Shown in pieces: positions 490-43,834 of a stretch of DNA of 64,000 nucleotides. The translations under genes were made by a program, and so were the position numbers. Below the pieces are notes generated by a model. That model was not told where the DNA came from and did not search any database. It was given only the letters and a program-made list of their open reading frames with translations. Source of the DNA: Candidatus Anstonella stagnisolia. GTDB lineage: Archaea > Micrarchaeota > Micrarchaeia > Anstonellales > Anstonellaceae. How positions within the stretch are numbered: position 1 is the stretch's first letter; each line of letters opens with the position of its first letter. The stretch covers positions 322,086 through 386,085 of the forward strand of contig CABMCJ010000004.1 in assembly GCA_902384585.1 (NCBI GenBank), read 5' to 3'.

Positions 490-972
490 CTAGAATGGCA
501 CGAACTCCCAGCTGTCCTTTATCACGTTCAGTATAACGTGCGTGTTTGTGCGCTCTACAAGGGGCTCGTGAAGGATTTTCTTTATCATGCGCGAAAACTC
601 CGCGCGGCTTTTGCATGCGACTATTGCGACCGCGTCGTATTCGCCCGTAACGTCGTATATCGCAAGTATCTGGGGGAGCGCGCGGATTTTCTGCTCCACC
701 TCAAGTAGGTGCCCTTTTGAGATGCGTATGTCTATGAGGGCCATGAACTCGTAGCCGAGAGCAAGCAAATCCAGGTTCGTGCCGAAATTGAGGATTATTT
801 TCTCCCGCTGCAAATGCTCCACGCGCTTTATCACTGTTGCGGGGTGGAGTTTGAGGCGCTTTGCAATTTCGCGGAAAGACTGGCGGGAGTCCGAGCGCAA
901 TTGCGCGATTATCGCCGTGTCTATTTTGTCCAGCTCCCGTGACATTTGTTCACCTTTTTCAATGTTTTGCAT
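490..972 (-). CDS. Lrp/AsnC family transcriptional regulator
   Basis: 160 aa. N-terminal HTH (SFREIAKRLKLHPATVIKRVEHL) plus a C-terminal ligand-binding AsnC-type domain. Divergent from glnA. Confidence 0.85.
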   Translation of the reverse strand: MQNIEKGEQMSRELDKIDTAIIAQLRSDSRQSFREIAKRLKLHPATVIKRVEHLQREKIILNFGTNLDLLALGYEFMALIDIRISKGHLLEVEQKIRALPQILAIYDVTGEYDAVAIVACKSRAEFSRMIKKILHEPLVERTNTHVILNVIKDSWEFVPF

Positions 973-1088
973 GCTGTGTGTAGAAGTTTGTATAGTTTTT
1001 TGTGTTTTTTATGTATGAATGTATGGTATAACAACTAGTGGATATTTATATGTATCGCTGGCAAGCATGGGAATTGGAGGGGAATTAG

Positions 1089-1523
1089 ATGCTAGACCAA
1101 ATAAGCGAGGGGGAGAAACAAAGGGTGCTTGATGATGTTAAGGAGAAGGGGATACAGTTCATTGACCTGGAATTCGTGGACGTGCTTGGAAATCCCAAGA
1201 TGTGCGAGATAACGTCGAAGATGCTCGAGCACGCGCTTGAGGAGGGGCTGTGGTTTGACGGCTCTTCCATAGAGGGGTTTGCGAGGATATTTGAGAGCGA
1301 CATGTTCTTGGTGCCGGACACGAAGACGTATGCACCCCTGCCCTGGACGGGCGGGAAGGTCGCAAGGATAATATGCGACGTGCACCATGACGAGAAAACG
1401 GTTTTTGAGGGCGACCCGAGATATGTCCTGAAGAAACAATTGGAAAAGGCAAAAGAAATGGGATTTGAGCTCAAGGTCGGGCCTGAGCTTGAGTTTTTCG
1501 TATTCAAGGCGGGAAACGGGTGA
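1089..1523 (+). CDS. glnA: glutamine synthetase, N-terminal (beta-grasp) part, ending at an in-frame TGA
   Basis: MLDQISEGEKQRVLDDVKEKGIQFIDLEFVDVLG...GPELEFFVF is typical of the GS type I N-domain. It is in the same frame as ORF 1548..2444, and only the TGA at 1521..1523 separates them. Confidence 0.85.
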   Translation: MLDQISEGEKQRVLDDVKEKGIQFIDLEFVDVLGNPKMCEITSKMLEHALEEGLWFDGSSIEGFARIFESDMFLVPDTKTYAPLPWTGGKVARIICDVHHDEKTVFEGDPRYVLKKQLEKAKEMGFELKVGPELEFFVFKAGNG

Positions 1524-1547
1524 GGGATAGAGCCCCAGACCGCGGTT

Positions 1548-2444
1548 GTGCATGATGATGCGGGGTATTTTGACTTGGCGACCAAGGACATGGCAGTGGA
1601 CTTGAGAAGGGAAATCGTGCCTGCGCTTGAGGCAATGGGGCTGAAAATCGAGATGGGGCACCACGAGGTTGCGCCAGGGCAGCACGAGATTGATTTTAGG
1701 TACGGGGAGGCGCTCTCAATTGCGGACAGCGTGCTCACGTACAAGACGACTGTGAAAACATTGGCAAGAAAGTACGGGCTGCACGCATCCTTCATGCCAA
1801 AGCCGGTTTTCGGGATAAACGGCTCAGGGATGCACGTGCACCAGTCGCTTTGGAAAAACGGGGAAAATGCGTTCTACGATGCGAATGATGCATATTTGCT
1901 CTCGCAAACTGCGAGGCACTACATTGCGGGCATATTGCACCATGCAAGGGCATTGAGCGCAATTACAAACCCCACTGTGAACTCGTACAAGAGGCTTGTG
2001 CCTGGGTATGAGGCGCCGGTGTACGTGTGCTGGGGCAGGATAAACCGAAGCGCGCTCATAAGGATTCCAAGGGCGCTTGCAGGAAAGCCGGGCGGGACAA
2101 GGGCGGAAGTGCGCTTCCCTGACCCGTCTGCAAACCCGTACCTTGCGTTTGCCGCGATGCTTGCGGCAGGGCTGGACGGGATTGCGAAAAAAATGGAGCC
2201 GCCAAAGCCCATTGAGGAGAACGTGTACCATTTTGATGACAGGAAGCTTTCGGAAATGTACATAAAGACGCTGCCGGGCTCCCTAAAAGAGGCAATGGAC
2301 GAGCTTGCGAAGGATGAGGTCGTGAAGGGGGCGCTTGGGAAGCACGTATATGAGAGCCTTACTACAGTGCAGCAGGCGGACTGGGATGAATATAGGCTTT
2401 CAGTAAGTGACTGGGAGAAAAAGAGATACTTCCCTGTCCTGTAG
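1548..2444 (+). CDS. glnA: glutamine synthetase, catalytic part (reading frame continuous from 1524)
   Basis: GS motifs HHEVAPGQHEIDF, NGSGMHVHQSL, NSYKRLVPGYEAP and SALIRIP. Together with 1089..1523 it gives about 451 codons, the normal GS-I length. Confidence 0.9.
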   Translation: MHDDAGYFDLATKDMAVDLRREIVPALEAMGLKIEMGHHEVAPGQHEIDFRYGEALSIADSVLTYKTTVKTLARKYGLHASFMPKPVFGINGSGMHVHQSLWKNGENAFYDANDAYLLSQTARHYIAGILHHARALSAITNPTVNSYKRLVPGYEAPVYVCWGRINRSALIRIPRALAGKPGGTRAEVRFPDPSANPYLAFAAMLAAGLDGIAKKMEPPKPIEENVYHFDDRKLSEMYIKTLPGSLKEAMDELAKDEVVKGALGKHVYESLTTVQQADWDEYRLSVSDWEKKRYFPVL

Positions 2445-2471
2445 CGATGCAGGGGGGAGGGTCAGGATTAA

Positions 2472-2514
2472 ACCTAAAACTGGGGAGGGGGCTTGCCCCC
2501 TCCGCGGTTTAGGT
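2472..2514 (+). terminator. 19-bp GC-cored hairpin between the two glnA 3' copies (terminator-like)
   Basis: Hand fold: ACCUAAA-a-CUG-g-GGAGGGGGC-UU-GCCCCCUCC-g-CGG-UUUAGGU. It ends directly before ATG 2515. A role in termination is inferred from position only. Confidence 0.45.
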
Positions 2515-2664
2515 ATGGACGAGCTTGCGAAGGATGAGGTCGTGAAGGGGGCGCTTGGAAAGCACGTGTACGAGAGCTTGACTGCTGTACAACAAGCAGA
2601 CTGGGACGAATACCGGCTCTCTGTGAGCGACTGGGAGAAAAAGAGATATTTTCCAGTACTGTAG
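2515..2664 (+). pseudogene. orphan duplicate of the last 49 codons of glnA
   Basis: Collinear with 2295..2444, no indels, 22 nt differences. The encoded peptide is identical except T to A (MDELAKDEVVKGALGKHVYESLTAVQQADWDEYRLSVSDWEKKRYFPVL). Confidence 0.9.
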
Positions 2665-2689
2665 CGAACGAAAAAACAAGTAATTTAAA

Positions 2690-3892
2690 TTGCAAGGGAA
2701 TAAGGAATGCATGAGAAGCATGAATTCCCTTGCAGTTTTGCTTTCTTTTGCTATTTTATTTGCTTTGCTTTTTGGGTGCACAATGCCCTGGGAGCAGCCT
2801 GCGCCAACGCAGCCAACTGAGCAGCCTGCGCAGAACACAACGCAGGTGGAAAACCAAAGCAGCACGCCGGTTGTGAATGAGACGGTTGCGAACGAAACGC
2901 AGGAGCCGGGGATTGACTGGGGCGAAGTTGCGGGAAACGAAACGCAGGGGCAACTCCCTGTTGAAAATGTTACGCAGGAAAACAATGTTACCCTGCCACA
3001 AGAAAACGGAACAAACGCCACAGAGAATGGCACGATTGACCTGAAAACTCCCTTTAGCAGGCCCAAGGACTCGCACGACATCGCAAACGGGACTTTCGGG
3101 CTCGTGCAAACACCGGATGCGGCGCTCAACGTGTATTTCATAGACGTGGGCTTTGGGAACTCGGTGCTTGTGAACAAGGGCACGTTCAACATGCTTATTG
3201 ATGCCGGGCCGGCTTCGCAGGGGGGCAAAGTGGCGTCATTTGTAAGCGCGCACGGGATAAGCGGGCTTGACGTTGTTGTTGCAACGCACGATGATGTGAA
3301 CAGCATTGGCGGGATTCCGACAGTGCTCGCAAGCATCCCGACGCAGGAAGTGTGGACGAACAATGTGAGCTCCAACAGCACGCAGTACAATGCGCTTATG
3401 AATGCGATAAATTCCCAGGAGAGGCCCGTGAAATACCCTGTTGCAAAGCAAACGCTTTTTGTGAACGGGCTTAATATCTCCATAATGAACCCGCAAAAGG
3501 ACAAGTTGAGGGGAAGCTCGGAATCAGACGCGATAATAATGAGGCTTGAATACGGGGACTTCTGCATCGTGCTCCTTGACCCCACAGTGCATGAGATTGA
3601 GCCGGCGCTGCTTTCAAGTGGCGTTCCGGTCGGGAAATGCCAGGTCGTGCAATACTTTAACAGGGGCGAGGGAAGGGGCGGCATGGAAGGCTATTCCACG
3701 CTTGTGGAGGGGAACATGAACTCGCTTAAGGACGTTGTGATAAGCGTGGGCCCAAGCCAGTACGACTTGCCAAGCCCGACAACGCTGGACAGGTTTGAGA
3801 TACACGGATGGAACGTGTACCGCACGGACACGGGCGGGACAATTACGGTAAGTTCTGACGGGAAGAATTATACCATAAGCAAGGAGAAATAA
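2690..3892 (+). CDS. secreted/lipoprotein-like metallo-beta-lactamase-fold protein (ComEC C-terminal-domain-like), metal motif degenerate
   Basis: Signal/lipobox-like N-terminus (LLSFAILFALLFGC). Asn-rich NxT/S tract. MBL-like core VYFIDVGFGNSVLV...MLIDAGP...VVVATHDDVNSIGG. The start may be M8 or M11 of the ORF. Confidence 0.65.
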   Translation: MQGNKECMRSMNSLAVLLSFAILFALLFGCTMPWEQPAPTQPTEQPAQNTTQVENQSSTPVVNETVANETQEPGIDWGEVAGNETQGQLPVENVTQENNVTLPQENGTNATENGTIDLKTPFSRPKDSHDIANGTFGLVQTPDAALNVYFIDVGFGNSVLVNKGTFNMLIDAGPASQGGKVASFVSAHGISGLDVVVATHDDVNSIGGIPTVLASIPTQEVWTNNVSSNSTQYNALMNAINSQERPVKYPVAKQTLFVNGLNISIMNPQKDKLRGSSESDAIIMRLEYGDFCIVLLDPTVHEIEPALLSSGVPVGKCQVVQYFNRGEGRGGMEGYSTLVEGNMNSLKDVVISVGPSQYDLPSPTTLDRFEIHGWNVYRTDTGGTITVSSDGKNYTISKEK

Positions 3893-3907
3893 AAAGAAGA
3901 AGCAAGC

Positions 3908-6900
3908 CTAGTTTTCAGGGACTTTTTTTATTTTTGCGATGTTTGTTGCGGTTGTGAGCTGTATGCCCACTATTTTTGAGCCCTCGTCGGTTTTCATCAC
4001 GCCTAGCGCAATGTCGGAGGAGGAGAGGATTGCATCGTTGTGGCTCACCACTACGAACTGCGTGTTGGAGGAGAGCTGGCGAAGCAGCCCTGCGAGCTTG
4101 CGCGAATTCTCCTTGTCAAGGGCAGCATCCGCCTCGTCAAGTATGTAGAAGGGGGATGCCTTGTGCATCTGTATTGAGAATATGAAGAGGAGCGCAAGGA
4201 GCGACTTTTCCCCTCCGGACATGGAATCTATGTAGCGCTCGTGCAATGCATCGCGCACCTTTATCTGCAAGCCTGAGTTGAACGGGTCTGAGGGCTGCTC
4301 AAGCAGGAGCGAGCCTTCGCCCTTGAACACAAGGTTGAATAGCTTCTTGAAGTTTGCGGCTATGCCGTTGAAAGTGGAAAGGAAAATGTCGCGCTTCTTT
4401 GCATCTATCTCCTCTATCATGTGCAGCACTGCGGTCTTTTCGTCTGCAAGAAGGGCGAGCTTGGACTGCACTTCTGCAATGTCCTTTTTCTTTTCCTCGT
4501 AAAGTTCGGGCGCTTTCAGGTTCACTGCGCCAAGGGAAGTTATTTTCAGGTCGGATTCCTTTATGATGTCCTCAAGCTGCGCCTTGGGCGCATCCATGAG
4601 GGCGGGCGGGCTTGCGCCAAAGCTCTCAAGCTCAACCTTGTAGTCCGCAAGCTTGCTTTCAAGTATGGACTTCTTTGCCTCAAGGTCTGAGAGCTGGCGC
4701 GAAAGGGTATCTGAGGAAAACTGGAGCTTGCCGCGCTCTGCGGAAAAGCCGGAGAGCTCCTCTTCAAGGGACTTTAGCTGCGCAAAGAGCTTTTGCATTG
4801 AGGCGCTCAGGTGCGTGAGCTCTTCCTCCTTTTGGGATAAGAGCTTGGAATTTTTCTCGCTCTGTGCGGTGAGCTCCTCTGCCTGCTTTTTGGAAGAGGC
4901 TTGCTCGGAAAGAAGGCCCTTGCGCTCTGTTTCAAGCTCGCTGTCCTGCTCGCGAAGCAGGGAAAGCTCGCCCTCTTTTGTTTTTATGGAAGAATCAAGC
5001 TCTGAGCGGGTTTCAAGGAAGGAACGCAGCTCCTGTGCGTGCGCATCCTCCTGCTTTTGCTCGGTTTGCTCCTCTGTTGCGATGGAGGCGGAAATGGACT
5101 CGCGCTCCTGCTGCATCTTTTCTATCTGCGAGTTTAAGGAGAGAAGCTCCTTTTCCTTTTGGGAAATCTGCTGCCTTAGGGAATCCGAGCCTGTTTGGAC
5201 TGATGCAATCTTTTCCTTCATGGACTCTATGGACTTGCGCTGGGCTGCCATGCTGTCTATTTCAAGCTCTATGCCTTTTGACTTGAGCTCAAGCTCTGCC
5301 TTTTCCCTGCGCTTCTTTGAAATGCTCTCGCGTATGGAATAGAGTTCGCTGTATGCGCCCTCGCGCTCTTTTTTGAGGTCCTCTATGTCGGACTCAAGCT
5401 TTTGGAGCGCGCTCTTTGAGAGTATGCTGGACTTTGCGCTGCCGCCGGTTATTATGCCGGAGCGCTCAAGCAGCTCGCCATCAAGGGTGGACATGCGCGC
5501 TTTCCCTATGCCGACTTTCTTTGCGGACTCAACGTCCTTTACGAGGAGCGTGTCGCCAAACACGTAGGACATTGCAGAAAAATATTTGCGGTCGCAGGAA
5601 ACGTAGTCAAGAACGAGCCCAAGGGAGCTTGGGGACTTTGAGGCTGCATTGGATTCTGCGGAAATCGCGCTTTGGGGGCGGTCAAGGGGAATGAAAGTGC
5701 ACCTGCCTGCCTTTTGGGACTTGAGCCTCTCTATTGCGGCTGTTGCAACGTCAAGGGACTCCACTATCACGTAGGTGAGGCGGTTTCCCGCGCACGCCTC
5801 TATTGCGCGCGAGTATTCCGGCTCGAATTTTATGAGGTCTGCGACAGTGCCGTAAATGCCCTTTATGGAAGAGCGCATTTCAAGCACGGATGAGATTGCG
5901 GGATTTGTTGCGGATGCCGAGACGCTTGCGCGCAGTATCGCGTGCTTTTCCTTGAGCTCAAGCATGCGCCTGTCAAGGAGAGGGATGCTCTTGTTCAGGT
6001 CCTTTTCCTTTGAGAAGAATTTGTCTATTTCCTTTGCAAGCGAATCTATGTCGGAAGAGATGTTGCCCTTTTCCCCCTCGAGCTTTTCGTTTGAGAGTTT
6101 GGGAAGCGAAGAGGTAAGGGACTGTATTTCGGAAAGGCGCATTGTGAGCATTTCCTTGCTCTTTGAAATGTCCGAAGAAAGGGAGGCGCGGGATTCGCGG
6201 GACTGCTGCAAGGAAGATACAAGGGAATCGAGCTTGGAGCGTATTGTGGAAAGCTTGGAGCTCTCGGACTTTTGCTGCTCGCCTTCCAGGGAAGATATTT
6301 TTGCGTTGAGGTCCTTTAGCTGCGTTTTTAGTTTTGAGATTTCGCCTGAAAGCTGCTGCACCTTCTTTTTTTGCAAGTCTTTTTTTCCTGCAAGCTCCTT
6401 GAGGCGGGCGTCTATGCGCGTGAGGTCCTTTTTCCTCTCCGTAAGGGAGGCTGCTGCTGCGGAAATCTCCACCTTGAGCTGCTCTATTTGCTTAAGCGTG
6501 CCATCGCGGGCGTTTTGCGCGTTTGCCTTTGCGGAAAGCTCTGCGCGCCTTGCCTCAAGTGCAGTTACTTTTGAGTCCAGCGTTGAGAGGCCCTCTGCGA
6601 GCTTTTCGCGCTCTGCCTTTGCTGCAATGTATTTTTGGGAAACTTCTGTGTGCTGCCTGCTCTGGTGCTCATGCTCGCGCTTTACGATTGTGTAGCGCGC
6701 GCCCTTTCTTTTTTCCGTTGCATCGTTGTATGCAAGGGCTGCGTCGCGCTCCTTTTCAAGCTCGCCCAAATATGCAACACGCTCTGAGAGCACGATGTTG
6801 GAATCCGAGATTTTGCGCTCGACTTTCTCAAGCTCGTTCATTGCCTCTTTCTTTTTCTCCTCAAACTCGGAAATGCCTGCGACAGTGTCTATTATTTCGC

Positions 6901-7339
6901 GGCGCTCCTTTGCATTGAGCTCTATTATGTGCTGCACCTGCCCCTGCGCGATTATGTTGTGCGAGCCGACCTCAAGGGCAAGCGGGCGCAGCGCCTCGAG
7001 CACGGAAGTGCGCGTAGCGCGCTTTCCATTTATGCGGTAAATGCACTTGCCGTTTTTCCCATCGTCCTTTATTGCGCGCTTTAGCTCCATTTTCTTGTCG
7101 CCATCTATGTAAAGAGTCACTTCAGCGTGTTTTGAGGACGTGTTAATGAGTTCGGAAACTTTTTTTGCGCGAAGCGAGCGCAAGGCGCTCTCTCCCAGCG
7201 CAAAGCGTATTGCGTCCGTTACGTTGGATTTTCCTGAGCCGTTGGGGCCTGCGAGGCAGATGAAGCCCCTTGAGAGGGCAATATCGGCGTTTTTGAAAGA
7301 CTTGAAACCGCGCAATCGAATCCTTGAGAGAAATATCAT
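3908..7339 (-). CDS. smc: chromosome segregation ATPase SMC
   Basis: 1143 aa. Walker A GPNGSGKSN at the N-terminus, long coiled coils, a central hinge, and C-terminal LSGGEKSLLALLFIFS...YILDEADAALD. Confidence 0.93.
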   Translation of the reverse strand: MIFLSRIRLRGFKSFKNADIALSRGFICLAGPNGSGKSNVTDAIRFALGESALRSLRAKKVSELINTSSKHAEVTLYIDGDKKMELKRAIKDDGKNGKCIYRINGKRATRTSVLEALRPLALEVGSHNIIAQGQVQHIIELNAKERREIIDTVAGISEFEEKKKEAMNELEKVERKISDSNIVLSERVAYLGELEKERDAALAYNDATEKRKGARYTIVKREHEHQSRQHTEVSQKYIAAKAEREKLAEGLSTLDSKVTALEARRAELSAKANAQNARDGTLKQIEQLKVEISAAAASLTERKKDLTRIDARLKELAGKKDLQKKKVQQLSGEISKLKTQLKDLNAKISSLEGEQQKSESSKLSTIRSKLDSLVSSLQQSRESRASLSSDISKSKEMLTMRLSEIQSLTSSLPKLSNEKLEGEKGNISSDIDSLAKEIDKFFSKEKDLNKSIPLLDRRMLELKEKHAILRASVSASATNPAISSVLEMRSSIKGIYGTVADLIKFEPEYSRAIEACAGNRLTYVIVESLDVATAAIERLKSQKAGRCTFIPLDRPQSAISAESNAASKSPSSLGLVLDYVSCDRKYFSAMSYVFGDTLLVKDVESAKKVGIGKARMSTLDGELLERSGIITGGSAKSSILSKSALQKLESDIEDLKKEREGAYSELYSIRESISKKRREKAELELKSKGIELEIDSMAAQRKSIESMKEKIASVQTGSDSLRQQISQKEKELLSLNSQIEKMQQERESISASIATEEQTEQKQEDAHAQELRSFLETRSELDSSIKTKEGELSLLREQDSELETERKGLLSEQASSKKQAEELTAQSEKNSKLLSQKEEELTHLSASMQKLFAQLKSLEEELSGFSAERGKLQFSSDTLSRQLSDLEAKKSILESKLADYKVELESFGASPPALMDAPKAQLEDIIKESDLKITSLGAVNLKAPELYEEKKKDIAEVQSKLALLADEKTAVLHMIEEIDAKKRDIFLSTFNGIAANFKKLFNLVFKGEGSLLLEQPSDPFNSGLQIKVRDALHERYIDSMSGGEKSLLALLFIFSIQMHKASPFYILDEADAALDKENSRKLAGLLRQLSSNTQFVVVSHNDAILSSSDIALGVMKTDEGSKIVGIQLTTATNIAKIKKVPEN

Positions 7340-7497
7340 TGCTCAACCCTGCCGCTGTGTGCTGATCGCCAGACGCATTACGAGTAAAAGCATTAAAAGC
7401 GTTTGGGTGTTTGCAGCGACGATGGGACGGCATCGGGGCGTTTGAGTGCCTGTGGTAAAGTTATAAAGTTTGGCAAGCAAATAATGGCGGTGGTGGG

Positions 7498-8124
7498 ATG
7501 CAGAGAACCGATAATTCTAATCTACGAAAAGCTATTGTAAGGGAAGCCTTTAAGCCGGAGCACAGCGTAGGAAATGCGATTTTTTCATTAAAACAACTGA
7601 GGCATCCGGAGAATGCGATTAGGGCGCTGGGAGTGAGGGGGCGCAGGCTGGAATGGGAAGCCGAGCGGGAGCACAGGGAAACATTGAATCACATTGATGA
7701 GATTGCGGAAAAACACAATGAGATTTTTGATCTTTTGATTCAGAAAATAATTACAGATGGCTCACATGGAGCAAGAATAGACCAGTTGCGCAAAGCTGCG
7801 GATTCCCTAAGCATGGCAGAGAGGATAAGTGGCGCGGCTGGGATTGCTTCTTCTGGGTTGCATTCGAATGCAGAAGTCAGGATTGCGGCCAAAATAACAA
7901 CGGGCAGTTATGATTTGAAGCAAAGAAGCAATGAGTTCAGCAAGTTGGGTGACGAGGTATCCAGCATTATGCACGGCGTAAGGGAACTGGGCCACGGCGG
8001 GTTTTTGATAAACAGGGTAGGAGATTTGATTTCAGGCAGGATGGGCCCGCGCAAATTCCTAAGTGAAGTAAAGGAAGAGCTATTTGACTGGGGGCGCGAC
8101 ATCAGGTTAAGTTTAAGAGACTGA
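7498..8124 (+). CDS. hypothetical protein
   Basis: 208-aa ORF filling an otherwise empty interval. No motif recognised. Confidence 0.45.
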   Translation: MQRTDNSNLRKAIVREAFKPEHSVGNAIFSLKQLRHPENAIRALGVRGRRLEWEAEREHRETLNHIDEIAEKHNEIFDLLIQKIITDGSHGARIDQLRKAADSLSMAERISGAAGIASSGLHSNAEVRIAAKITTGSYDLKQRSNEFSKLGDEVSSIMHGVRELGHGGFLINRVGDLISGRMGPRKFLSEVKEELFDWGRDIRLSLRD

Positions 8125-8127
8125 GAA

Positions 8128-8625
8128 TTAGGAGGCTTGCTGCACGTTTGCAACTACCCTTCCGGAGGTTGTGTATTCTCCACTTGTGCCTGAGCAGTCT
8201 GCAGCGCTTGCGGACATGCAGTTAACGTAGAAAAGCTGCACGTAAAGGGTTTGCTGCGAACCGCGCGGAAGCGGGGAGGCAAAATTTATTTTAACGTCGT
8301 ATTTTTCGCCATCCTGCACTATGCTAGCCGGCGCAGTTACTGCTGCCTGCGGGGTTTGGCCGGAGGCAAAGGAAACGTTCACGTTTGTGAATTTTATCGG
8401 GAAGCCGAGGCCGTTTCGCACCGAGAACTGGAGGGTGGATGCGGTTTCGCTTGAGTACAGTATGTAAGGCGAGCATGCGAGGTTGGGCTGGAAATTGCAC
8501 TCCTCGAAAATGAAGTGGGATGCAGAGAAAATCCCAGAGGAAACAAGCGCTACGAGCACTACGAGAAGGGCAAGAAGTGCCCATCCGTAAGTCACTAAGT
8601 ATTCCATGGCTGCTTGCCCTTTCAT
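8128..8625 (-). CDS. archaeal type IV pilin-like protein (class III signal peptide)
   Basis: N-terminus MKGQAAMEYLVTYGWALLALLVVLVALV: a short charged leader followed by a hydrophobic helix, typical of archaeal prepilins. Confidence 0.7.
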   Translation of the reverse strand: MKGQAAMEYLVTYGWALLALLVVLVALVSSGIFSASHFIFEECNFQPNLACSPYILYSSETASTLQFSVRNGLGFPIKFTNVNVSFASGQTPQAAVTAPASIVQDGEKYDVKINFASPLPRGSQQTLYVQLFYVNCMSASAADCSGTSGEYTTSGRVVANVQQAS

Positions 8626-8669
8626 GCAAGTAAAACAAATGCAAGTAATATAAAAGTGAGTGGGGATGT

Positions 8670-8999
8670 ATGCTTATCAAAGGATTGCGAGATGGTAATA
8701 TGGCAGAAGAAAAATCCCCCATGGGGATTGTGAAGACGAAAATACCGCTTTATAACAGCGGGTTCAACGAATCCGGGCACATACTTTTGTGCGAAAACGG
8801 GATTTGCCTTAGGACTGAAGAGGAAAGCGTGAAAGTCCCGTACAGCTACGTGCAATCCATTGACAGGATAAAGGACTTGCCGCTTGCAAAAGTGCTCGTG
8901 GGAATTTCACTGTACGACCAGATCGGGGCAAAAGTGAACGTCGAGGTCGGGATGGCGGACATGCACTACAACGAGCTCAAGAGGGTGTGCGGGAAGTAA
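8670..8999 (+). CDS. hypothetical protein
   Basis: 109-aa ORF. The start may be M11. No motif recognised. Confidence 0.4.
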   Translation: MLIKGLRDGNMAEEKSPMGIVKTKIPLYNSGFNESGHILLCENGICLRTEEESVKVPYSYVQSIDRIKDLPLAKVLVGISLYDQIGAKVNVEVGMADMHYNELKRVCGK

Positions 9000-9799
9000 G
9001 GGGATGCGTGCCTTTTTTCTATTTCCCTTAGAAGCCGGGGGGAAGCATCCATAAGATTTATGTGATGGACTTCCTCGATAGCGCAGAACGCATCAATGAG
9101 AAAGTTACGGAATGCAAAGGGATGCAGCCCTGTTGTCTGGGACGCCTTTTCCGTTGATGCTGCTGCAATTGCCGCCATTATGGGCAGGTTTGCATTTAAA
9201 GAATAAAACAGGCATCCGTCTTTTTTGGGTTCGGCATTACCGTTGAGCGCGTCCATGCGCTCCAAAAAGTGCTTTACGGACAGCTGTATCAGTTGAACCG
9301 GCACTGAATCCGAATCATCATCAAGGAGGGAACCAAAATCCTCTGCTGAATAGTGCGTGCCCTTGTACAATGTAGCCGCTTCTTCGTACTGGAGCATGAA
9401 GGAATCGAGGGTGCGGCTTAAGGATTCGAGATCGCTGCGCCTTTTGTCCCCGTTCGCTTTTTCAGCTACTGCCCTGAGGGATTGGAAAAAATTTGAAGCG
9501 TGCTCGCGGTTTGGGTCGCACAAAAATCCATCCTGCAATAGCTGCAGGATTTCTTCGCCTATGCGCCCAAGCTCGTCCAGGGATTTCCTATCCTCTGCAA
9601 GGAACTCATGCCATGCGGAATTTATCCCTGATTTTTGCGCTTTAAGCAGATTGGTGCGTTCATGGGAAATTGGTTCGATTAGAGGGAACTCGGGTTCCTT
9701 ATGGCTGTTGCTGCCGTTATTTCCAGGAGATAGTGCTGGAGTTTCCCTGGGATTTAGGGCAAGCTGTTTTTGTGGTGCTGGTGCTTGGGCTCCTGGCAT
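8966..9799 (-). CDS. hypothetical protein
   Basis: 277-aa ORF, convergent with and slightly overlapping 8670..8999. No motif recognised. Confidence 0.45.
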   Translation of the reverse strand: MPGAQAPAPQKQLALNPRETPALSPGNNGSNSHKEPEFPLIEPISHERTNLLKAQKSGINSAWHEFLAEDRKSLDELGRIGEEILQLLQDGFLCDPNREHASNFFQSLRAVAEKANGDKRRSDLESLSRTLDSFMLQYEEAATLYKGTHYSAEDFGSLLDDDSDSVPVQLIQLSVKHFLERMDALNGNAEPKKDGCLFYSLNANLPIMAAIAAASTEKASQTTGLHPFAFRNFLIDAFCAIEEVHHINLMDASPRLLREIEKRHASPYFPHTLLSSL

Positions 9800-9871
9800 G
9801 CTAAGACCATAGGAAAATATGTAAAAAGATGAATTTAATAGTATGTGTTATACTGGAATTTGCAAGGGCAA

Positions 9872-10837
9872 TCAGGCAAGGGTTGCCTGCATTGCAATTT
9901 GCTCACCTATTTGTGAATCTGCGATTGCGTTGTAGCCAAGCTTTTGCAAGTGCGCTGCCATTTCCTCCCCCCTTCCAAGCGCGCACACGATTTTTTTCGG
10001 GTTCGCTGCATCTATGTATTGGAGGATTTCGGAAAAGTCAGCATGGTCGGAGAGGGGGAAGGCGCGGTCAAGGGGAAGCTGCGCATTGAGTGCCCAGCCG
10101 GTTGCGGCTGCAGTGAGCACGTTCATGTTGTAGGCTTCCGAGAGGGAGTGCGCGAGCGAAAAATTCACGGAATTCATGGGCATTATTGCGACAAATGGGT
10201 CGCGCAGCATTTCTGCGCTCTCTGCGCTGCCGCTTCGCACGCGGGAAAGGCGCACCCCTAAGGATTCGTATTTTTTGCACACGTCGTCTATGCGGCTGCT
10301 TACTATAGGGGTTATGCCACAGGAATCGTTTAGGAATTTTGTAATCTCTTGGGCTTTTCCGATTGTGTATGCGCCGAAAATAAGCGAGCTTTGGGAATTG
10401 TTTTTCCTTACCCAGTTTTCCATTTGGGAAAGTATTTCTTCGCGCGCGGGAAAGCGCATTTTCGGGTCGCCGTACGTGCTTTCCATCACAAGAGTGTCGC
10501 ACTCCTTGACTTTTGCGCCTGCGCACGTGAAGCTTTGGGAGAGCTTGAAATCGCCGGTGTATGTGAGGGTGGAGCCGTCAAGCTGCGCGTGGAGCTGGGA
10601 AGCTCCAAGCATGTGTCCTGCAGGGAGAAGGGAAATGCCTTTTGGGATTGGATGCGCGTTCTTTGCGCCCGCAAGATGCAGGGTTTCCCCCGTCGCGAAA
10701 ACGTTTTTCCTTGCGCGCACTGCCGCAGTGTGGTCGGAATGCGCGTGGGACACAAAGCACAGATTGGCCTTTGCGTGGTCGAGCGCGATTTCGTGCTCGA
10801 GGCCGGGAAGCCGAATTTTCATGTTGGGCAGAAGCAT
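9872..10837 (-). CDS. metallo-beta-lactamase / beta-CASP family nuclease (COG1236-like)
   Basis: HxHxDH motif (VSHAHSDHTAA) and a C-terminal beta-CASP-type motif (PLSDHADFSEILQYI). 321 aa. Confidence 0.75.
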   Translation of the reverse strand: MLLPNMKIRLPGLEHEIALDHAKANLCFVSHAHSDHTAAVRARKNVFATGETLHLAGAKNAHPIPKGISLLPAGHMLGASQLHAQLDGSTLTYTGDFKLSQSFTCAGAKVKECDTLVMESTYGDPKMRFPAREEILSQMENWVRKNNSQSSLIFGAYTIGKAQEITKFLNDSCGITPIVSSRIDDVCKKYESLGVRLSRVRSGSAESAEMLRDPFVAIMPMNSVNFSLAHSLSEAYNMNVLTAAATGWALNAQLPLDRAFPLSDHADFSEILQYIDAANPKKIVCALGRGEEMAAHLQKLGYNAIADSQIGEQIAMQATLA

Positions 10838-10894
10838 AGTGGTCGCAGGAAAGAAAGGGAGATAAGGTATAAAAGGGGTTGCTATGCGCGAAAA

Positions 10895-12091
10895 TCATTC
10901 CGTGCGCAGCGCCTCTATCGGGACCATTTCCGCCGCATTTTTCGCAGGGAAATACCCGGCGACTATTCCGATAAGGAAGGAAAAGAGCAGGCAGAAGCCT
11001 GCAAGTTCCGCGCTTGGGGAAACCGGGACCCCGAAGAAGGAGAGGATTTCTATGAGCACCAGGCCCACTACTATGCCTATTGCGCCGCCCACTATGCCTA
11101 TTATGCCGCTTTCAAAAAGGAAAATTTTCAGGATGTCGGGCTTGCGCGCGCCAACTGCCTTTAGGATGCCGATTTCAGAGTAGCGCTCAAGCACTGCCAT
11201 GAACATGGTGTTTGCGATTGTAACGCCGCCTACTACGAGGGAGATTGCGGCAATGCCGCCAAGGAAGGCGGTGAGAAGGCCGGTTATTATGCCCAGTTGC
11301 TCGGAAATGAACGCGGAGGTTATCACTGAGAAATCCTCGTTGCCCTCAAGAAGGCCGCGCCTTGCGCGCAGCGTGGATTTTATTTCCTGCGCGACTTCCT
11401 CCGCATTGTATTCGCTGTTTGCAATTATGTAAATCCCGTGTATCTCGTCCTTTGCAAGCTGGTTTCCAAGAACCTCGCGCACGTCGTCTATGGGCGCATA
11501 AATAGTTGTGTCGGTGTCGTCAAGGGTGCCACCTGTCGCCTTCATTATGCCAATCACGCGGTAGCTTTTTCCCCCGATTGTGACAACGCTGTTCACTGCA
11601 AGGTCCTTCTTGAAATAATTCTTTGCAATCTTGTCGCCAATCACTAGCACCTGCCTGTCTCCCTCTTTGAGGAACCGCCCGTCCGCGATTTCTATTGTGG
11701 AAACTGCCTTTTGGAAATTCTGGGGCTCTATCCCGATTACGGTTGCGGATAGCTGCTCGCCCTTGTAGTCCATTGCGATGCGGCCGTAAAGGTAGGGGGT
11801 GAGTATGTCGATGCCACCCGCGCGCTCAATCCATTTCATGTCCTGTATGAAAAACCTGCCGCTTTGCGGCGCGCCCGTGCCCATTGCGGAGAGCTTTCCC
11901 GGGGTGATTATTATTGTGTGCGAGCCGAAAGCATCAAGCTCCTTGTTCACGCTTGCGGAAATGCCCTGCCCTATTGAAATGAGGATGAACACGGAACAGA
12001 TGCCTATCACTACGCCAAGTATTGTGAGATAGGAACGCAGGGAACGCTGCATAAGCGCGCGCAGCGCGTACAGGAAAAGGTCCTTTTGCAT
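10895..12091 (-). CDS. ABC transporter permease, FtsX/MacB-like
   Basis: 398 aa. N-terminal TM helix, a large extracytoplasmic domain, and a C-terminal FtsX-type 3-TM bundle (SEIGILKAVGARKPDILKIFLFES). No ATPase partner is adjacent. Confidence 0.85.
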   Translation of the reverse strand: MQKDLFLYALRALMQRSLRSYLTILGVVIGICSVFILISIGQGISASVNKELDAFGSHTIIITPGKLSAMGTGAPQSGRFFIQDMKWIERAGGIDILTPYLYGRIAMDYKGEQLSATVIGIEPQNFQKAVSTIEIADGRFLKEGDRQVLVIGDKIAKNYFKKDLAVNSVVTIGGKSYRVIGIMKATGGTLDDTDTTIYAPIDDVREVLGNQLAKDEIHGIYIIANSEYNAEEVAQEIKSTLRARRGLLEGNEDFSVITSAFISEQLGIITGLLTAFLGGIAAISLVVGGVTIANTMFMAVLERYSEIGILKAVGARKPDILKIFLFESGIIGIVGGAIGIVVGLVLIEILSFFGVPVSPSAELAGFCLLFSFLIGIVAGYFPAKNAAEMVPIEALRTE

Positions 12092-18151: not shown

Positions 18152-18258
18152 GGGCCGATAGCTTAGCCTGGTTGGAGCGTTCGACTGATAAATTTTTGCC
18201 CTCAGGGGCGAAAACTTTTGAAATCGAAAGGTCGGGAGTTCAAATCTCCTTCGGCCCA
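18152..18258 (+). tRNA. tRNA-Ile (anticodon GAU) with a 32-nt intron at 37/38
   Basis: Hand fold: acceptor GGGCCGA/TCGGCCC, D stem GCTT/GAGC, anticodon stem TTCGA/TCGAA with loop CTGATAA, T arm GGGAG-TTCAAAT-CTCCT, discriminator A. Intron about 18191..18222. No encoded CCA. Confidence 0.9.
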
Positions 18259-18263
18259 TAGAC

Positions 18264-18300
18264 AAACCTCATAGGGGGGCTAGCGCCCCCCTTGCGGTTT
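18264..18300 (+). terminator. AAACC...GGGGGGC/GCCCCCC...GGTTT hairpin followed by a T-run, 6 nt after tRNA-Ile
   Basis: 7-bp G/C core (18274..18280 with 18285..18291), a 4-nt loop, an AAACC/GGTTT base, then TTTTT. Confidence 0.45.
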
Positions 18301-18341: not shown

Positions 18342-18461
18342 ATGGACAACGACGATGTTTACAAGCCGTGCCCGCAGTGCGATACCATGATGAATGCAAT
18401 TAGGGGCAGCAAGAATGCGAAGTGCCCAAACTGCGGATTCAAGGACTCGTGCTGTTTCTAG
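18342..18461 (+). CDS. small Zn-ribbon protein (39 aa), below the ORF-track cutoff
   Basis: MDNDDVYKPCPQCDTMMNAIRGSKNAKCPNCGFKDSCCF has two CxxC pairs. AAGGT lies 5 nt upstream of the ATG. Confidence 0.5.
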   Translation: MDNDDVYKPCPQCDTMMNAIRGSKNAKCPNCGFKDSCCF

Positions 18462-18489
18462 ATGGAAAAGCGCGCCCGGATTGCTGTTT

Positions 18490-19062
18490 CTAGATGAAGT
18501 ATCCGCCCAAGTAGAAGCCAGTATAGGCGATAAAGAGGTACTTTACTATTTTTCCCGCGATTGTTGCAAGCAGGAATTTCCAGAGCGGCATTTTTATTGC
18601 GCCTGCCGCAATCCCTGCAATATCCAGCACGGGATTTGGAAGCGCAGAGAGGACGAAAATTGCGGGCATTCCGTATTTTTGCAATCCTTTCTTGTGCTGC
18701 AGATAGATTTTTGTGTGCGAAACCTTGCTGCTGCCGGAATATCCTACGAGGTAGCTTGTGAGTTCGCCTATTCCTGAGCCAACACCTGCAACAAAGCCCA
18801 CAAGCAGCGGGTTGAGGAATGCGCTCATTGCAAAAATTATTGCAAACCCTGGGGCTGGGAGGAACATTGTTGCACTGGAAACGAGTGCGATTATGAAAAC
18901 TCCAGGATATCCGAGCTGTATGAATAGTTCTGAATTCTTGGAAAATTCCGAGGAAAGCACGAATGCGCCAATTGAGATGCCGATTGCAAAAAGTAGCGTG
19001 AAAAGGCTTTTTGCATTTTCAAGCGTGAGGAGGCTTTTCTTTTTCATGCTGTTCTTTTTCAT
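18490..19062 (-). CDS. DedA/VTT-domain (SNARE-associated) membrane protein
   Basis: Start moved to MKKNSMKKKS (19062), because the upstream 99 codons of the track ORF overlap proS on the other strand. Multi-TM protein with motif GIGELTSYLVGYSG...LSALPNPVLDIAGIAAG. Confidence 0.78.
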   Translation of the reverse strand: MKKNSMKKKSLLTLENAKSLFTLLFAIGISIGAFVLSSEFSKNSELFIQLGYPGVFIIALVSSATMFLPAPGFAIIFAMSAFLNPLLVGFVAGVGSGIGELTSYLVGYSGSSKVSHTKIYLQHKKGLQKYGMPAIFVLSALPNPVLDIAGIAAGAIKMPLWKFLLATIAGKIVKYLFIAYTGFYLGGYFI

Positions 19063-20568: not shown

Positions 20569-20618
20569 AAGTAGGGTTTGATTTTTAAGGTCTTTATTTC
20601 ATATCTTTAGTGTACGCT

Positions 20619-20776
20619 AGCCCCGTCGTCTAGCGGCCAAGGACACTGGGCTTTGAACAACCCTTTTTGCGCCTCCAGATGGGCACGGCGCAAAAAGCGT
20701 TGACGGAAACGTCAACAGAAGATGAAAAGGGTTGCGAAGAAACCCAGTTACAGCAGTTCGAATCTGCTCGGGGCTA
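20619..20776 (+). tRNA. tRNA-Gln (anticodon UUG) with an 85-nt intron at 37/38
   Basis: Hand fold: acceptor AGCCCCG/CGGGGCT, D stem GTCT/GGAC, anticodon stem CTGGG/CCCAG with loop CTTTGA-[intron 20657..20741]-A, T arm AGCAG-TTCGAAT-CTGCT, discriminator A. A relaxed bulge-helix-bulge can be drawn (CUUU/GAAG central helix with GAA and AAA bulges). Confidence 0.88.
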
Positions 20777-20786
20777 TTCTTTTTCT

Positions 20787-42847: not shown

Positions 42848-43705
42848 TTATTGCAGCTCGTCAAGTATTTTGCTTATGTCCACGTTTTCTATTGGGCGCT
42901 TGCACGTTGGCATCTCGGAAAGGTGCGGGATGCCGTCCTCGTAAGTGGGCTTATCCTCCTTGTAGAAAACCCCGATTGGGATTTTGTCGCCCCACTCAAA
43001 AGTTTTTGCAAATGCAGCCTGCTTGTCCTCCGCATTGTGGTTCTTTTCATCAAGCTTGTACACGCGCTGCATGAAGTATTGGTAGGTATTTAACTTGTTG
43101 AAAGTGACGCAGGGCTGCAGCACGTCTATGAGGGAAAAGCCCTTGTGATTTATGCCGCCGAGTATTGTATTTACCATGTGGGGCAAATCCCCTGAGAAGG
43201 TGCGCGCAACGTAAGTAGCGCCCGAGGAAATCGCAAGCGCCAGCGGGTTCACAGGGTCTTCAAGCACCCCGTGCGGCGTGCTCTTGGATTTGTAGCCTTT
43301 TTCGCTTGTGGGCGAAGTCTGCCCTGTTGTAAGCCCGTACACCTGGTTGTCGTGCACTATGTAAGTGATGTCCAGGTTGCGGCGCATTGAATGTATGAAA
43401 TGCCCCATCCCGATTCCGTATCCGTCGCCGTCGCCTCCGACTGCGATTACTGTGAGGAGATGGTTGCCCAGCTTAACGCCGGTTGCGACTGGAAGCGAGC
43501 GGCCGTGCAGGGACTCGTATGCATACGTTTTCATGAAATGCGGGAGCTTTCCGGAACAGCCTACTCCGGAAACAACTACTGTGTCCTTTGGGTCTATCTC
43601 GCTTTTTGCAAGCGCGTTCTTTAGGGATATCAGGATTGGGAAATTCCCGCAGCCTGGGCACCATTCGGGCGCGTGGCCGCTTTCGTATTGTTGGACTGTT
43701 GCCAT
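42848..43705 (-). CDS. korB: 2-oxoacid:ferredoxin oxidoreductase beta subunit (TPP-binding)
   Basis: MATVQQYESGHAPEWCPGCGNFPIL...GVGCSG...GGDGDGYGIG. Start at ATG 43705. The 21 extra codons of the track ORF lie in the insert. Confidence 0.92.
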   Translation of the reverse strand: MATVQQYESGHAPEWCPGCGNFPILISLKNALAKSEIDPKDTVVVSGVGCSGKLPHFMKTYAYESLHGRSLPVATGVKLGNHLLTVIAVGGDGDGYGIGMGHFIHSMRRNLDITYIVHDNQVYGLTTGQTSPTSEKGYKSKSTPHGVLEDPVNPLALAISSGATYVARTFSGDLPHMVNTILGGINHKGFSLIDVLQPCVTFNKLNTYQYFMQRVYKLDEKNHNAEDKQAAFAKTFEWGDKIPIGVFYKEDKPTYEDGIPHLSEMPTCKRPIENVDISKILDELQ

Positions 43706-43778
43706 AAGATTACCTACTGATATAATTTCCGTCAACGCTTTTTGCGCCGTACCCGCCTGGAGGCGCAAAAAGGGTTGT
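43706..43778 (-). other. 73-nt insert in the korB start region; its first 53 nt (43778..43726) are homologous to the tRNA-Gln intron
   Basis: Minus strand ACAACCCTTTTTGCGCCTCCAGGCGGGTACGGCGCAAAAAGCGTTGACGGAAA versus intron 20657..20709, which differs at 3 positions, all in the loop between CTTTTTGCGCC and GGCGCAAAAAG. Confidence 0.85.
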
Positions 43779-43826
43779 GCACCATTCTGGCGCGTGGCCG
43801 CTTTCGTATTGTTGGACTGTTGCCAT
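43779..43826 (-). repeat. upstream duplicate of the first 48 nt of korB (opens a 38-codon uORF)
   Basis: Identical to 43658..43705 except for one synonymous position (CCA versus CCC). It starts 8 nt after the korA stop, which is the expected natural korB start position. Confidence 0.9.
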
Positions 43827-43834
43827 ATTATCGC

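Follow-up and report, generated by a model that had tools for sequence, protein, structure and literature searches.

The glutamine synthetase gene glnA of 'Candidatus Anstonella stagnisolia' (Micrarchaeota, DPANN) carries its 3' end twice: the last 150 nucleotides (nt) of the gene are followed, after a 70-nt spacer, by a diverged second copy. The sequence derives from a metagenome-assembled genome (MAG) from groundwater. We analysed a 64-kb window (64,000 nt of contig CABMCJ010000004.1, positions 322,086 to 386,085 of the forward strand), and coordinates below are those of this window unless a relative is named. Here, we report a comparison of the two ends with each other and with the glnA loci of related lineages, describe a second structure of similar layout in the same window, and weigh the processes that could have produced them.

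The duplicated end of glnA

The locus consists of the following features, in which gene2 is the gene downstream of glnA, and L numbers, here and below, stand for sequences used for comparison.

490..972, minus strand: Lrp/AsnC-family regulator (Pfam AsnC_trans_reg and HTH_AsnC-type), the upstream neighbour of glnA, its position kept in all relatives
1089..2444, plus strand: glnA, type I glutamine synthetase, 451 codons, by translation; terminates in copy 1
2295..2338, plus strand: identical block, first copy, 44 nt, with no differences between the copies; a homologous in-register junction would lie within it or at its end
2339..2444, plus strand: distal part of copy 1, 103 coding nt and TAG; probably the imported end, now the functional end of glnA, with an L003-type 3' flank attached
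2425..2463, plus strand: hairpin 1, in which spacer nt 2448-2463 pair with the final codons of copy 1, enclosing the TAG
2445..2514, plus strand: spacer (filler), 70 nt; its nt 2-11, GATGCAGGGG, match the L003 flank, and a TATA-like GGATTAAAC lies at 2465-2473
2472..2514, plus strand: hairpin 2, with a GC core
2515..2558, plus strand: identical block, second copy, 44 nt, opening at an in-frame ATG
2559..2664, plus strand: distal part of copy 2 and TAG; probably the displaced resident end; unannotated, in the +1 frame relative to glnA
2665..2710, plus strand: ancestral glnA-gene2 intergenic region, 46 nt, by its match to L001, an alignment to L003 by eye, and the 46-47 nt spacing in L003 and L154
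2711..3892, plus strand: gene2, 393 amino acids, metallo-beta-lactamase (MBL) fold (Pfam Lactamase_B; VVB58468.1), identified also by synteny; a downstream neighbour kept in relatives

The two copies (2295-2444 and 2515-2664) align collinearly and without gaps at an offset of 220 nt. They differ at 22 of 150 nt, spread over 20 codons, 19 of them with synonymous changes and one, codon 24, with an exchange of Thr for Ala (ACA/GCT). The first 44 nt, the TAG stop codon, and the 3 nt thereafter (CGA) are identical. A preliminary description made from the sequence had given the same alignment, tally of differences and identical stretches, and our re-alignment reproduces them exactly. A repeat search recovered the same pair (153 nt, 86%); the window has just one other local diverged direct repeat. 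Copy 1 continues glnA in frame, and the sequences upstream of the two repeat starts have no similarity.

By the Nei-Gojobori method, the copies differ by 20 synonymous and 2 nonsynonymous changes (Sd=20, Nd=2; pS=0.67, pN=0.017), and the ratio of nonsynonymous to synonymous divergence (dN/dS) is ~0.01, so that the synonymous excess noted earlier by hand is upheld by formal calculation. In a neutral simulation of 22 random substitutions (100,000 runs, with the observed 16 transitions and 6 transversions retained), the mean number of amino-acid-changing codons was 14.5 and the minimum was 6, compared to the single one observed. The chance of zero differences in the first 44 nt, given 22 in 150, is P = 2.3e-4. 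The distal 106-nt stretch is the most conserved part of the GlnA C-terminus, and the peptide encoded by copy 2 corresponds to positions 301-344 of Pfam Gln-synt_C. The Thr/Ala change is not anomalous: over the same stretch, a hand count in two relatives gives 2 and 4 residue changes per 15 and 26 nt differences, respectively.

The spacer between the copies had been portrayed as essentially one GC-cored hairpin that ends at the ATG of copy 2 with its AGGU buried in the stem. This portrayal holds for the right-hand part: 43 of the 70 spacer nt belong to hairpin 2 (predicted folding free energy, dG, -31.8 kcal/mol; z -5.24; 0 of 200 shuffles fold as well), which ends in a paired base directly before the ATG of copy 2, and the AGGU is paired. 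It does not extend over the whole spacer, as hairpin 2 spans only 2472-2514 and the first ~19 nt belong to hairpin 1 as its 3' arm (dG -20.3, z -2.8). Judged from the sequence, an illegitimate junction would lie at the base of hairpin 2 and at an ATG.

A hairpin of the same architecture as hairpin 1 is present in L003 (5919-5956; dG -18.9, z -3.3), and a comparison of both structures by hand gives two compensatory pairs between them, along with three compatible changes on one side only. Neither the end of copy 2 (-0.8) nor that of L001 (-2.7) forms the stop-codon hairpin, and it is absent from L154 as well. The hairpin may be a glnA 3'-end or termination signal in part of the family. The intergenic region of L154 has GGATTAAAA where the spacer has the TATA-like GGATTAAAC.

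No other copy of the spacer was found elsewhere in the window, and no significant similarity to it in the fetched Micrarchaeota loci. The 22-nt core of hairpin 2 matches more than 120 metagenome contigs, none of which shares the window's flanks, and has no matches in viral contigs. Among the matches listed, most contigs with the core share a flanking consensus in AT-rich sequence, as would members of a repeat family, the remainder being scattered GC hairpins. In AT-rich Joint Genome Institute (JGI) metagenome contigs (L030-L149), which have only the hairpin core in common with the window, the palindrome CTGGGGAGGGGGCTTGCCCCCTCCCCAG recurs many times as an intergenic element. A known structured RNA, such as a glutamine riboswitch, is not indicated: no Rfam family matches at its gathering score, and within 2250-2800 all E-values are at least 0.21, with scores far below the thresholds.

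Only two perfect GC hairpins of at least 8 bp occur in the 64 kb, and hairpin 2 is one of them. The other, AGGGGGGC-TAGC-GCCCCCCT, lies at 18273-18292, ~15 nt past an intron-containing tRNA-Ile(GAU) gene (18152-18258) that was detected by Rfam only; the resemblance between the two hairpins is not above background.

Ancestral locus and provenance of the two ends

A search for one-copy alleles in related genomes found a single glnA end in three lineages, L003-L008, L154-L163 and L001/L150. In L003-L008 (DNA ~83% identical), the gene order is AsnC - glnA - 47 nt - gene2 - SMC, and L154-L163 has the same order with a 46-nt gap between glnA and gene2. The closest relatives, L001/L150, with 90% DNA identity in the glnA body, have one glnA end followed by an insertion sequence (IS) element, past which the L001 sequence is 94% identical to 2675-2779 of the window. 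At the protein level, the nearest database relative of this GlnA is P0001 (97% identical), and hundreds of further Micrarchaeota GlnA sequences match. Because the relatives keep one glnA end and a short intergenic region, by this comparison the window carries a 220-nt insertion relative to an ancestral single-end state; it is copy 2, not copy 1, that runs on into the ancestral intergenic flank.

Among ten other Micrarchaeota lineages, none has a second glnA end; L018 alone has short degenerate relics. In this distant micrarchaeon (GlnA ~70% identity), several degenerate copies of the last ~25-36 nt of glnA lie past the stop codon, at 11315-11565 (for example, 11363-11398 and 11452-11487). They contain CGCTTCGGCG hairpins and are decayed, unlike copy 2 of the window. 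In two Thermoplasmata sequences (L014, L015), the best match to the GlnA C-terminus lies ~1.4 kb past the end of the main glnA match, which suggests a second glutamine synthetase gene in tandem. The IS element of L001 (~6373-7341) and L150, which encodes a DDE_Tnp_1 transposase, is inserted inside the glnA-gene2 intergenic region, at the same place as the insertion of the window; inspection by eye shows terminal inverted repeats GCTCTGTAGAAAT and a ~9-nt target duplication ACAAATGAA.

The provenance of the two ends was examined by comparing site patterns among four sequences, namely copy 1, copy 2, L001 and L003. In the first 44 nt, all 6 informative sites pair copy 1 with copy 2 and none supports either alternative. 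In the distal 106 nt, no site pairs the two copies, and the alternatives receive 6 and 4 sites. A recombination breakpoint lies at nt 44/45 of the repeat, because the copies group together before it and are a species-level distance apart (22 differences) after it. The site patterns therefore indicate that the 44-nt block is a recent duplicate of one sequence, with distal parts from different lineages. The same block differs from L001 at 8 positions and from L003 at 15. The earlier proposal that both copies evolved separately as gene ends and were then brought together is thus supported by dN/dS, the neutral simulation, the breakpoint and the single-copy relatives.

Over the distal 106 nt, copy 1 and copy 2 differ at 22 positions, copy 1 and L001 at 21, and copy 2 and L001 at 15. 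Per 106-nt stretch, the glnA body differs from L001 at a mean of 10.7 and at most 19 positions, and from the more distant L003 at a mean of 17.9. The divergence of copy 2 from L001 is within the range of the glnA body, whereas that of copy 1 is above every body stretch. By eye, the flank of copy 2, CGAACGAAAAAAC..., resembles the L001 flank, CCAAACAAATGAAAAAG.... This likeness of copy 2 and its flank to the closest relative makes copy 2 the probable displaced resident end of glnA, and copy 1 the probable imported one, an assignment that we consider roughly twice as probable as the reverse. Codon usage does not discriminate between the two.

After its stop codon, copy 1 continues with GATGCAGGGG, which occupies the same register behind glnA in L003; an equal score is reached by 18 of 2000 shuffles when unanchored. 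As the flank matches L003 and shares an L003-type stop-codon hairpin, copy 1 with its flank looks like a coherent chromosomal glnA 3' module of another lineage, not element DNA. A foreign origin of the insert is indicated by the between-species divergence of the distal parts, the site patterns, and the L003-type flank with its hairpin; the donor sequence itself was not found. The glnA body is a mosaic, too, with 1899-1988 nearer to L003 than to L001 and 1479-1568 equally far from both, which implies that exchange between lineages at glnA is ongoing; at the sampling site, seven genomes of Anstonellales are found together (PMC8561730).

The second of these patches, where divergence from L001 is raised, contains an in-frame TGA (1521-1523, codon 145 of glnA), and the deposited annotation gives glnA as two pieces, VVB58466.1 (N-terminal) and VVB58467.1 (C-terminal). 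In relatives, codon 145 is Ser (AGC) or Gly; TGA is one step from GGA and two from AGC. Recoding is rejected because TGA terminates 7 of 42 long open reading frames (ORFs) of the window and is an ordinary stop in this genome. The TGA could be a pseudogene mutation, a population variant or an error.

Downstream, gene2 begins with a hydrophobic stretch that is signal-like by eye, and a TATA-like TTTAAAT (2684-2690) lies ~24 nt ahead of its ATG. A hairpin at 2678-2743 (dG -25.2, z -3.4), which begins directly after a TATA-like box, encloses the gene2 start codon in its loop. The hairpin is also found in L003 (5962-6013), with the arms kept between the two sequences (AAAyTGCAAGGG / CCCTTGCAGTTT), and a different hairpin has the same role at the gene2 start of L154 (~4379-4439).

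Recombination and its alternatives

In our assessment, somewhat better than even, the duplicated glnA end is a recombination scar left by DNA from a related lineage, with a homologous join on the left and an illegitimate one on the right; the scar itself probably has no function of its own. The ancestral locus would have consisted of AsnC, glnA, the 46-nt intergenic region and gene2, with copy 2 as the single glnA end. The incoming DNA, whether it came from another, related lineage of Anstonellaceae or from a diverged allele present alongside, would have carried a glnA 3' module: the last 106 nt and the stop codon, the downstream arm of the stop-spanning hairpin, and further 3' flank. On the left, homology would have joined it in register to the resident glnA, by a crossover within the 44-nt block or at its end. 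On the right, its illegitimate join to the resident gene would lie 150 nt ahead of the resident stop, at the hairpin base and an ATG. The outcome would be a net gain of 220 nt, a glnA that ends with the imported copy 1, and copy 2 left 70 nt downstream as an untranslated relic. Before the event, each end would have evolved in its own lineage as the end of a working gene, which would account for the almost exclusively synonymous differences; present selection on copy 2 need not be invoked for this pattern.

One homologous, in-register junction combined with one non-homologous junction is the signature of homology-facilitated illegitimate recombination, and such recombination of a linear fragment is one conceivable route. 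Others would be a single crossover of a self-joined donor fragment, or a replication template switch into the donor and back, with the 44 nt copied again. These three sub-mechanisms are inseparable on the present data.

What the spacer represents in such an event can be read in one further, unproven way: as the donor's whole glnA-gene2 intergenic region, with ATG(GA) as the donor's gene2 start. The gene2 starts of relatives (ATGGA, ATGGC or ATGGG), set beside the ATGGAC at the spacer-copy 2 junction, are suggestive only. On this reading, microhomology would explain the ~1% coincidence of a repeat opening at an in-frame ATG.

Several observations weigh against recombination with foreign glnA DNA, at least in its simple form. 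The copy 1 allele and the spacer are in neither of the two relatives close enough for DNA comparison, so the donor was not found there; 59 of the 70 spacer nt are without a source in the window, the fetched Micrarchaeota loci, or the metagenome and viral contigs. The choice of the resident copy is based on modest numbers (15 versus 21 differences, 6 versus 4 informative sites). In addition, a plain linear-fragment event would leave identical 44-nt blocks beside a 106-nt stretch that differs by 21% unexplained. The identity would fit a donor with the same sequence in the block, an intermediate that was circular or arose by template switching, or gene conversion at a later time.

A second repeat-filler-repeat structure in the window also bears on the choice of explanation:

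43655-43840, minus strand: second scar, where the alpha gene (43835-45574) of a 2-oxoacid:ferredoxin oxidoreductase, by Pfam, meets the beta gene (42848-43705)

The repeated unit of 65 nt runs from the last alpha codon and its stop across the 8 intergenic nt into beta, of which it includes the first 16 codons. Its copies (43776-43840 and 43655-43719) are identical at 58 of 65 nt (89%); they differ synonymously in two codons, at four or five bases of the 8-nt intergenic stretch, and at one base of the filler boundary. Both the alpha and the beta gene are intact, as is the case for glnA. The 56-nt filler matches, when inverted, the 5' part of a tRNA-Gln intron (20654-20709) at 94% identity; it begins at the first nucleotide of the intron and ends in the loop of one intron hairpin. 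Repeat-filler-repeat structures were not found in 137 kb from relatives. With unrelated targets, the two scars point to a general recombination process and speak against a site-specific integrase.

The tRNA-Gln(UUG) gene (20618-20777) has a ~85-88-nt intron after position 37. It was missed by the first ARAGORN run and by Rfam and was recognised once the intron, which is strongly structured (dG -37.4, z -4.2), had been removed by hand. Elsewhere in the window, an exact 15-nt repeat, TGCTGTTTCTAGATG (18450-18464 and 18482-18496, 32 nt apart), spans the stop of a 39-codon zinc-ribbon-like ORF and an ATG, and constitutes a third, smaller gene-junction duplication.

Unlikely, although the best placed of the other explanations, is the relic of an integrative element that used the glnA 3' end as its attachment site, with copy 1 as attL, copy 2 as attR and the 44 nt as the core. 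The layout would fit integration: 44 identical nt, for which this account is a natural one, are followed by 22 differences in 106 nt, synonymous in 19 of 20 codons, in frame to TAG, with the displaced native end after them. The e14 prophage at icd/icdC of Escherichia coli gives the same picture of mostly synonymous changes (PMC13626634), L018 also has degenerate glnA-terminus relics past the gene, and the intergenic region is insertion-prone, as the IS element in L001/L150 attests. However, the copies are only 70 nt apart, with no element gene between them and conserved chromosomal genes as neighbours, so that nearly the whole element would have to have been lost later, or the 220 nt would have to be a miniature non-autonomous element. 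A Pfam profile scan limited to the eight flanking genes (490-12091) found no integrase among them, and the gene order is conserved. The DNA past the stop codon of copy 1 matches the chromosomal glnA flank of L003, with its stop-codon hairpin, and the second scar, at an unrelated target, would require a second, different integrase. The absence of a second glnA end from the ten other Micrarchaeota lineages also counts against an element. No GlnA C-terminal fragment of this type was found in IMG/VR viral contigs or plasmids, a weak negative as Micrarchaeota elements are poorly sampled. Matches to GlnA in phage collections are 34-40% identical and come from unannotated records labelled as phages of Firmicutes, an unrelated lineage, and are probably host-type glnA.

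The preliminary description had offered two mechanisms, recombination with foreign glnA DNA and an element carrying a replacement gene end. The first is favoured by the L003-type flank and hairpin, the lack of a nearby integrase and the second scar, and the second is weakened.

A more specific process appears improbable: one that recurrently inserts DNA that is short and strongly structured at gene ends, copies ~44-48 nt of the target perfectly, and swaps the adjacent stretch for an allelic version. Its basis is the presence of two scars in 64 kb, each with an identical or near-identical block of 44-48 nt, and the filler of the second that starts at the tRNA-Gln intron. If it were true, intron-derived or hairpin-bearing mobile DNA would be spreading via flanking gene-end copies, and the displaced glnA end could be expressed as a 49-residue C-terminal mimic of glutamine synthetase.

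Slightly less probable still is an assembly or library artefact, in which two strain variants of the glnA end were strung together by the assembler or by chimeric reads. The circumstances lend this some colour. The MAG was assembled by MEGAHIT (k 27-127) from a co-assembly of four samples with 2x150 Illumina short reads, and the community contains several related Anstonellales (PMC8561730). The same glnA has an in-frame TGA, and two such structures occur in this 64 kb as against none in the 137 kb from relatives assembled by other groups. On the other side, no sequence is common to the spacer-copy 2 junction and the DNA that precedes copy 1, and 122 nt separate the last base specific to copy 1 (2438) from the first one specific to copy 2 (2559), a distance that fits within one 127-mer or one 150-nt read. 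Given how such assemblers behave, a de Bruijn assembler would therefore need real molecules to join them. An independent single-run assembly is 100% identical over 218-1035, and the spacer is unique, with flank homology and structure of its own, unlike a mis-join to another locus.

We attach very little probability to copy 2 as a functional small gene, whether for a 49-residue glutamine synthetase C-terminal peptide that modulates enzyme assembly or activity, or as a regulatory repeat in the 3' untranslated region. Copy 2 does start exactly at an in-frame ATG, as an estimated ~1% of gene positions would, its frame and stop are intact, the TATA-like GGATTAAAC of the imported spacer lies ~45 nt upstream, and the near-lack of amino-acid change is compatible with selection. 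The history before the event fully explains the synonymous pattern, however, and copy 2 versus L001 is mostly synonymous as well; the identity of the two 44-nt blocks would date the event too recently for any selection on copy 2 to show. The -31.8 kcal/mol hairpin ends flush at the ATG, pairs the only Shine-Dalgarno-like bases and leaves no spacing, and no TATA-like sequence is present at the usual ~25 nt. No 49-residue or 85-residue protein corresponding to the copy 2 product is on record, no other lineage has such an ORF, and there is no Rfam family match. Read-through or frameshifting into copy 2 is unsupported, with a TAA 7 codons past the TAG in the glnA frame; the +1 frame is open from 2407, but a stop-free run of 36 codons is unremarkable.

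Had the gene end been duplicated in tandem where it stood and then diverged, perhaps with gene conversion of the first 44 nt, slippage or unequal crossing-over would yield direct repeats 220 nt apart, and the tandem-like degenerate glnA-terminus copies of L018 offer a parallel. This account is effectively refuted by the neutral simulation (amino-acid-changing codons averaged 14.5 and numbered at least 6 in every run, compared with the 1 observed), by a spacer that is not repeated past copy 2, where the ancestral intergenic region lies, and by a copy 1 flank that matches another lineage's.

Significance and comparison with known systems

As a recombination scar, the duplicated glnA end would be a clean, datable footprint of DNA exchange among related lineages of an uncultivated DPANN archaeon, imprecise at one end, in a group whose recombination mechanisms are not yet open to experimental study. 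It would show that an essential-type gene can have its end replaced in frame with the protein sequence kept. Displaced ends of this kind can pass for small genes, for regulatory repeats or for errors of assembly. Counting scars across the genome, which the second scar in the same window suggests would be worthwhile, would provide an initial estimate of how frequently homologous exchange in these archaea is accompanied by illegitimate recombination. By itself, the glnA scar is of modest interest, which would rise if such scars proved frequent and mechanistically uniform across the genome. A limited literature search found no earlier description of such an event in DPANN archaea or at glnA.

Among known arrangements, diversity-generating retroelements, which occur in DPANN archaea, resemble the locus in that their template and variable repeats of ~100-150 nt include one at the 3' end of a gene and a second copy shortly downstream. 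We reject this interpretation: the differences in glnA involve all four bases in both directions instead of being confined to the adenines of one copy, they are synonymous and not diversifying, and no reverse transcriptase is present among the examined neighbours (AsnC, the MBL-fold protein, SMC and others).

The Rhs, contact-dependent inhibition (CDI) and type VI secretion system (T6SS) effector loci are similar in that a conserved 5' part acquires a new 3' end while the old one is pushed downstream and kept. For C-terminal displacement in T6SS and Rhs loci, homology-facilitated illegitimate recombination is the route that was proposed (PMC5361080). Those systems diversify toxin and immunity specificity, and their displaced ends encode different proteins, whereas the two glnA ends encode the same peptide bar one residue in a metabolic housekeeping gene, with no diversification.

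A closer parallel in arrangement is icd/icdC at the e14 (and phage 21) site of E. coli K-12, where incoming DNA supplies the 3' end, the housekeeping gene keeps working, and the original end persists downstream as a C-terminal fragment pseudogene. There, too, the two ends differ mainly by synonymous changes and very few amino acids (PMC13626634). Unlike glnA, the icd ends flank a ~15-kb prophage with an integrase and recombine site-specifically; here, the ends are 70 nt apart with no element, and the DNA past the new stop resembles the chromosomal flank of a relative.

Homology-facilitated illegitimate recombination, described in Acinetobacter, Streptococcus pneumoniae, Pseudomonas stutzeri and E. 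coli, shares with the glnA locus one end anchored by homology, the other joined without it, and partial duplication of the homologous segment. In E. coli assays, the products were mostly duplications of 109-950 bp of the homologous segment, formed by a single crossover of circularised donor DNA (PMC3240628). That process has been established experimentally in bacteria, whereas the glnA event is deduced from one archaeal genome. In type, the event is already known, namely, gene-end replacement and displacement by imprecise recombination, and is not a new kind of genetic element.

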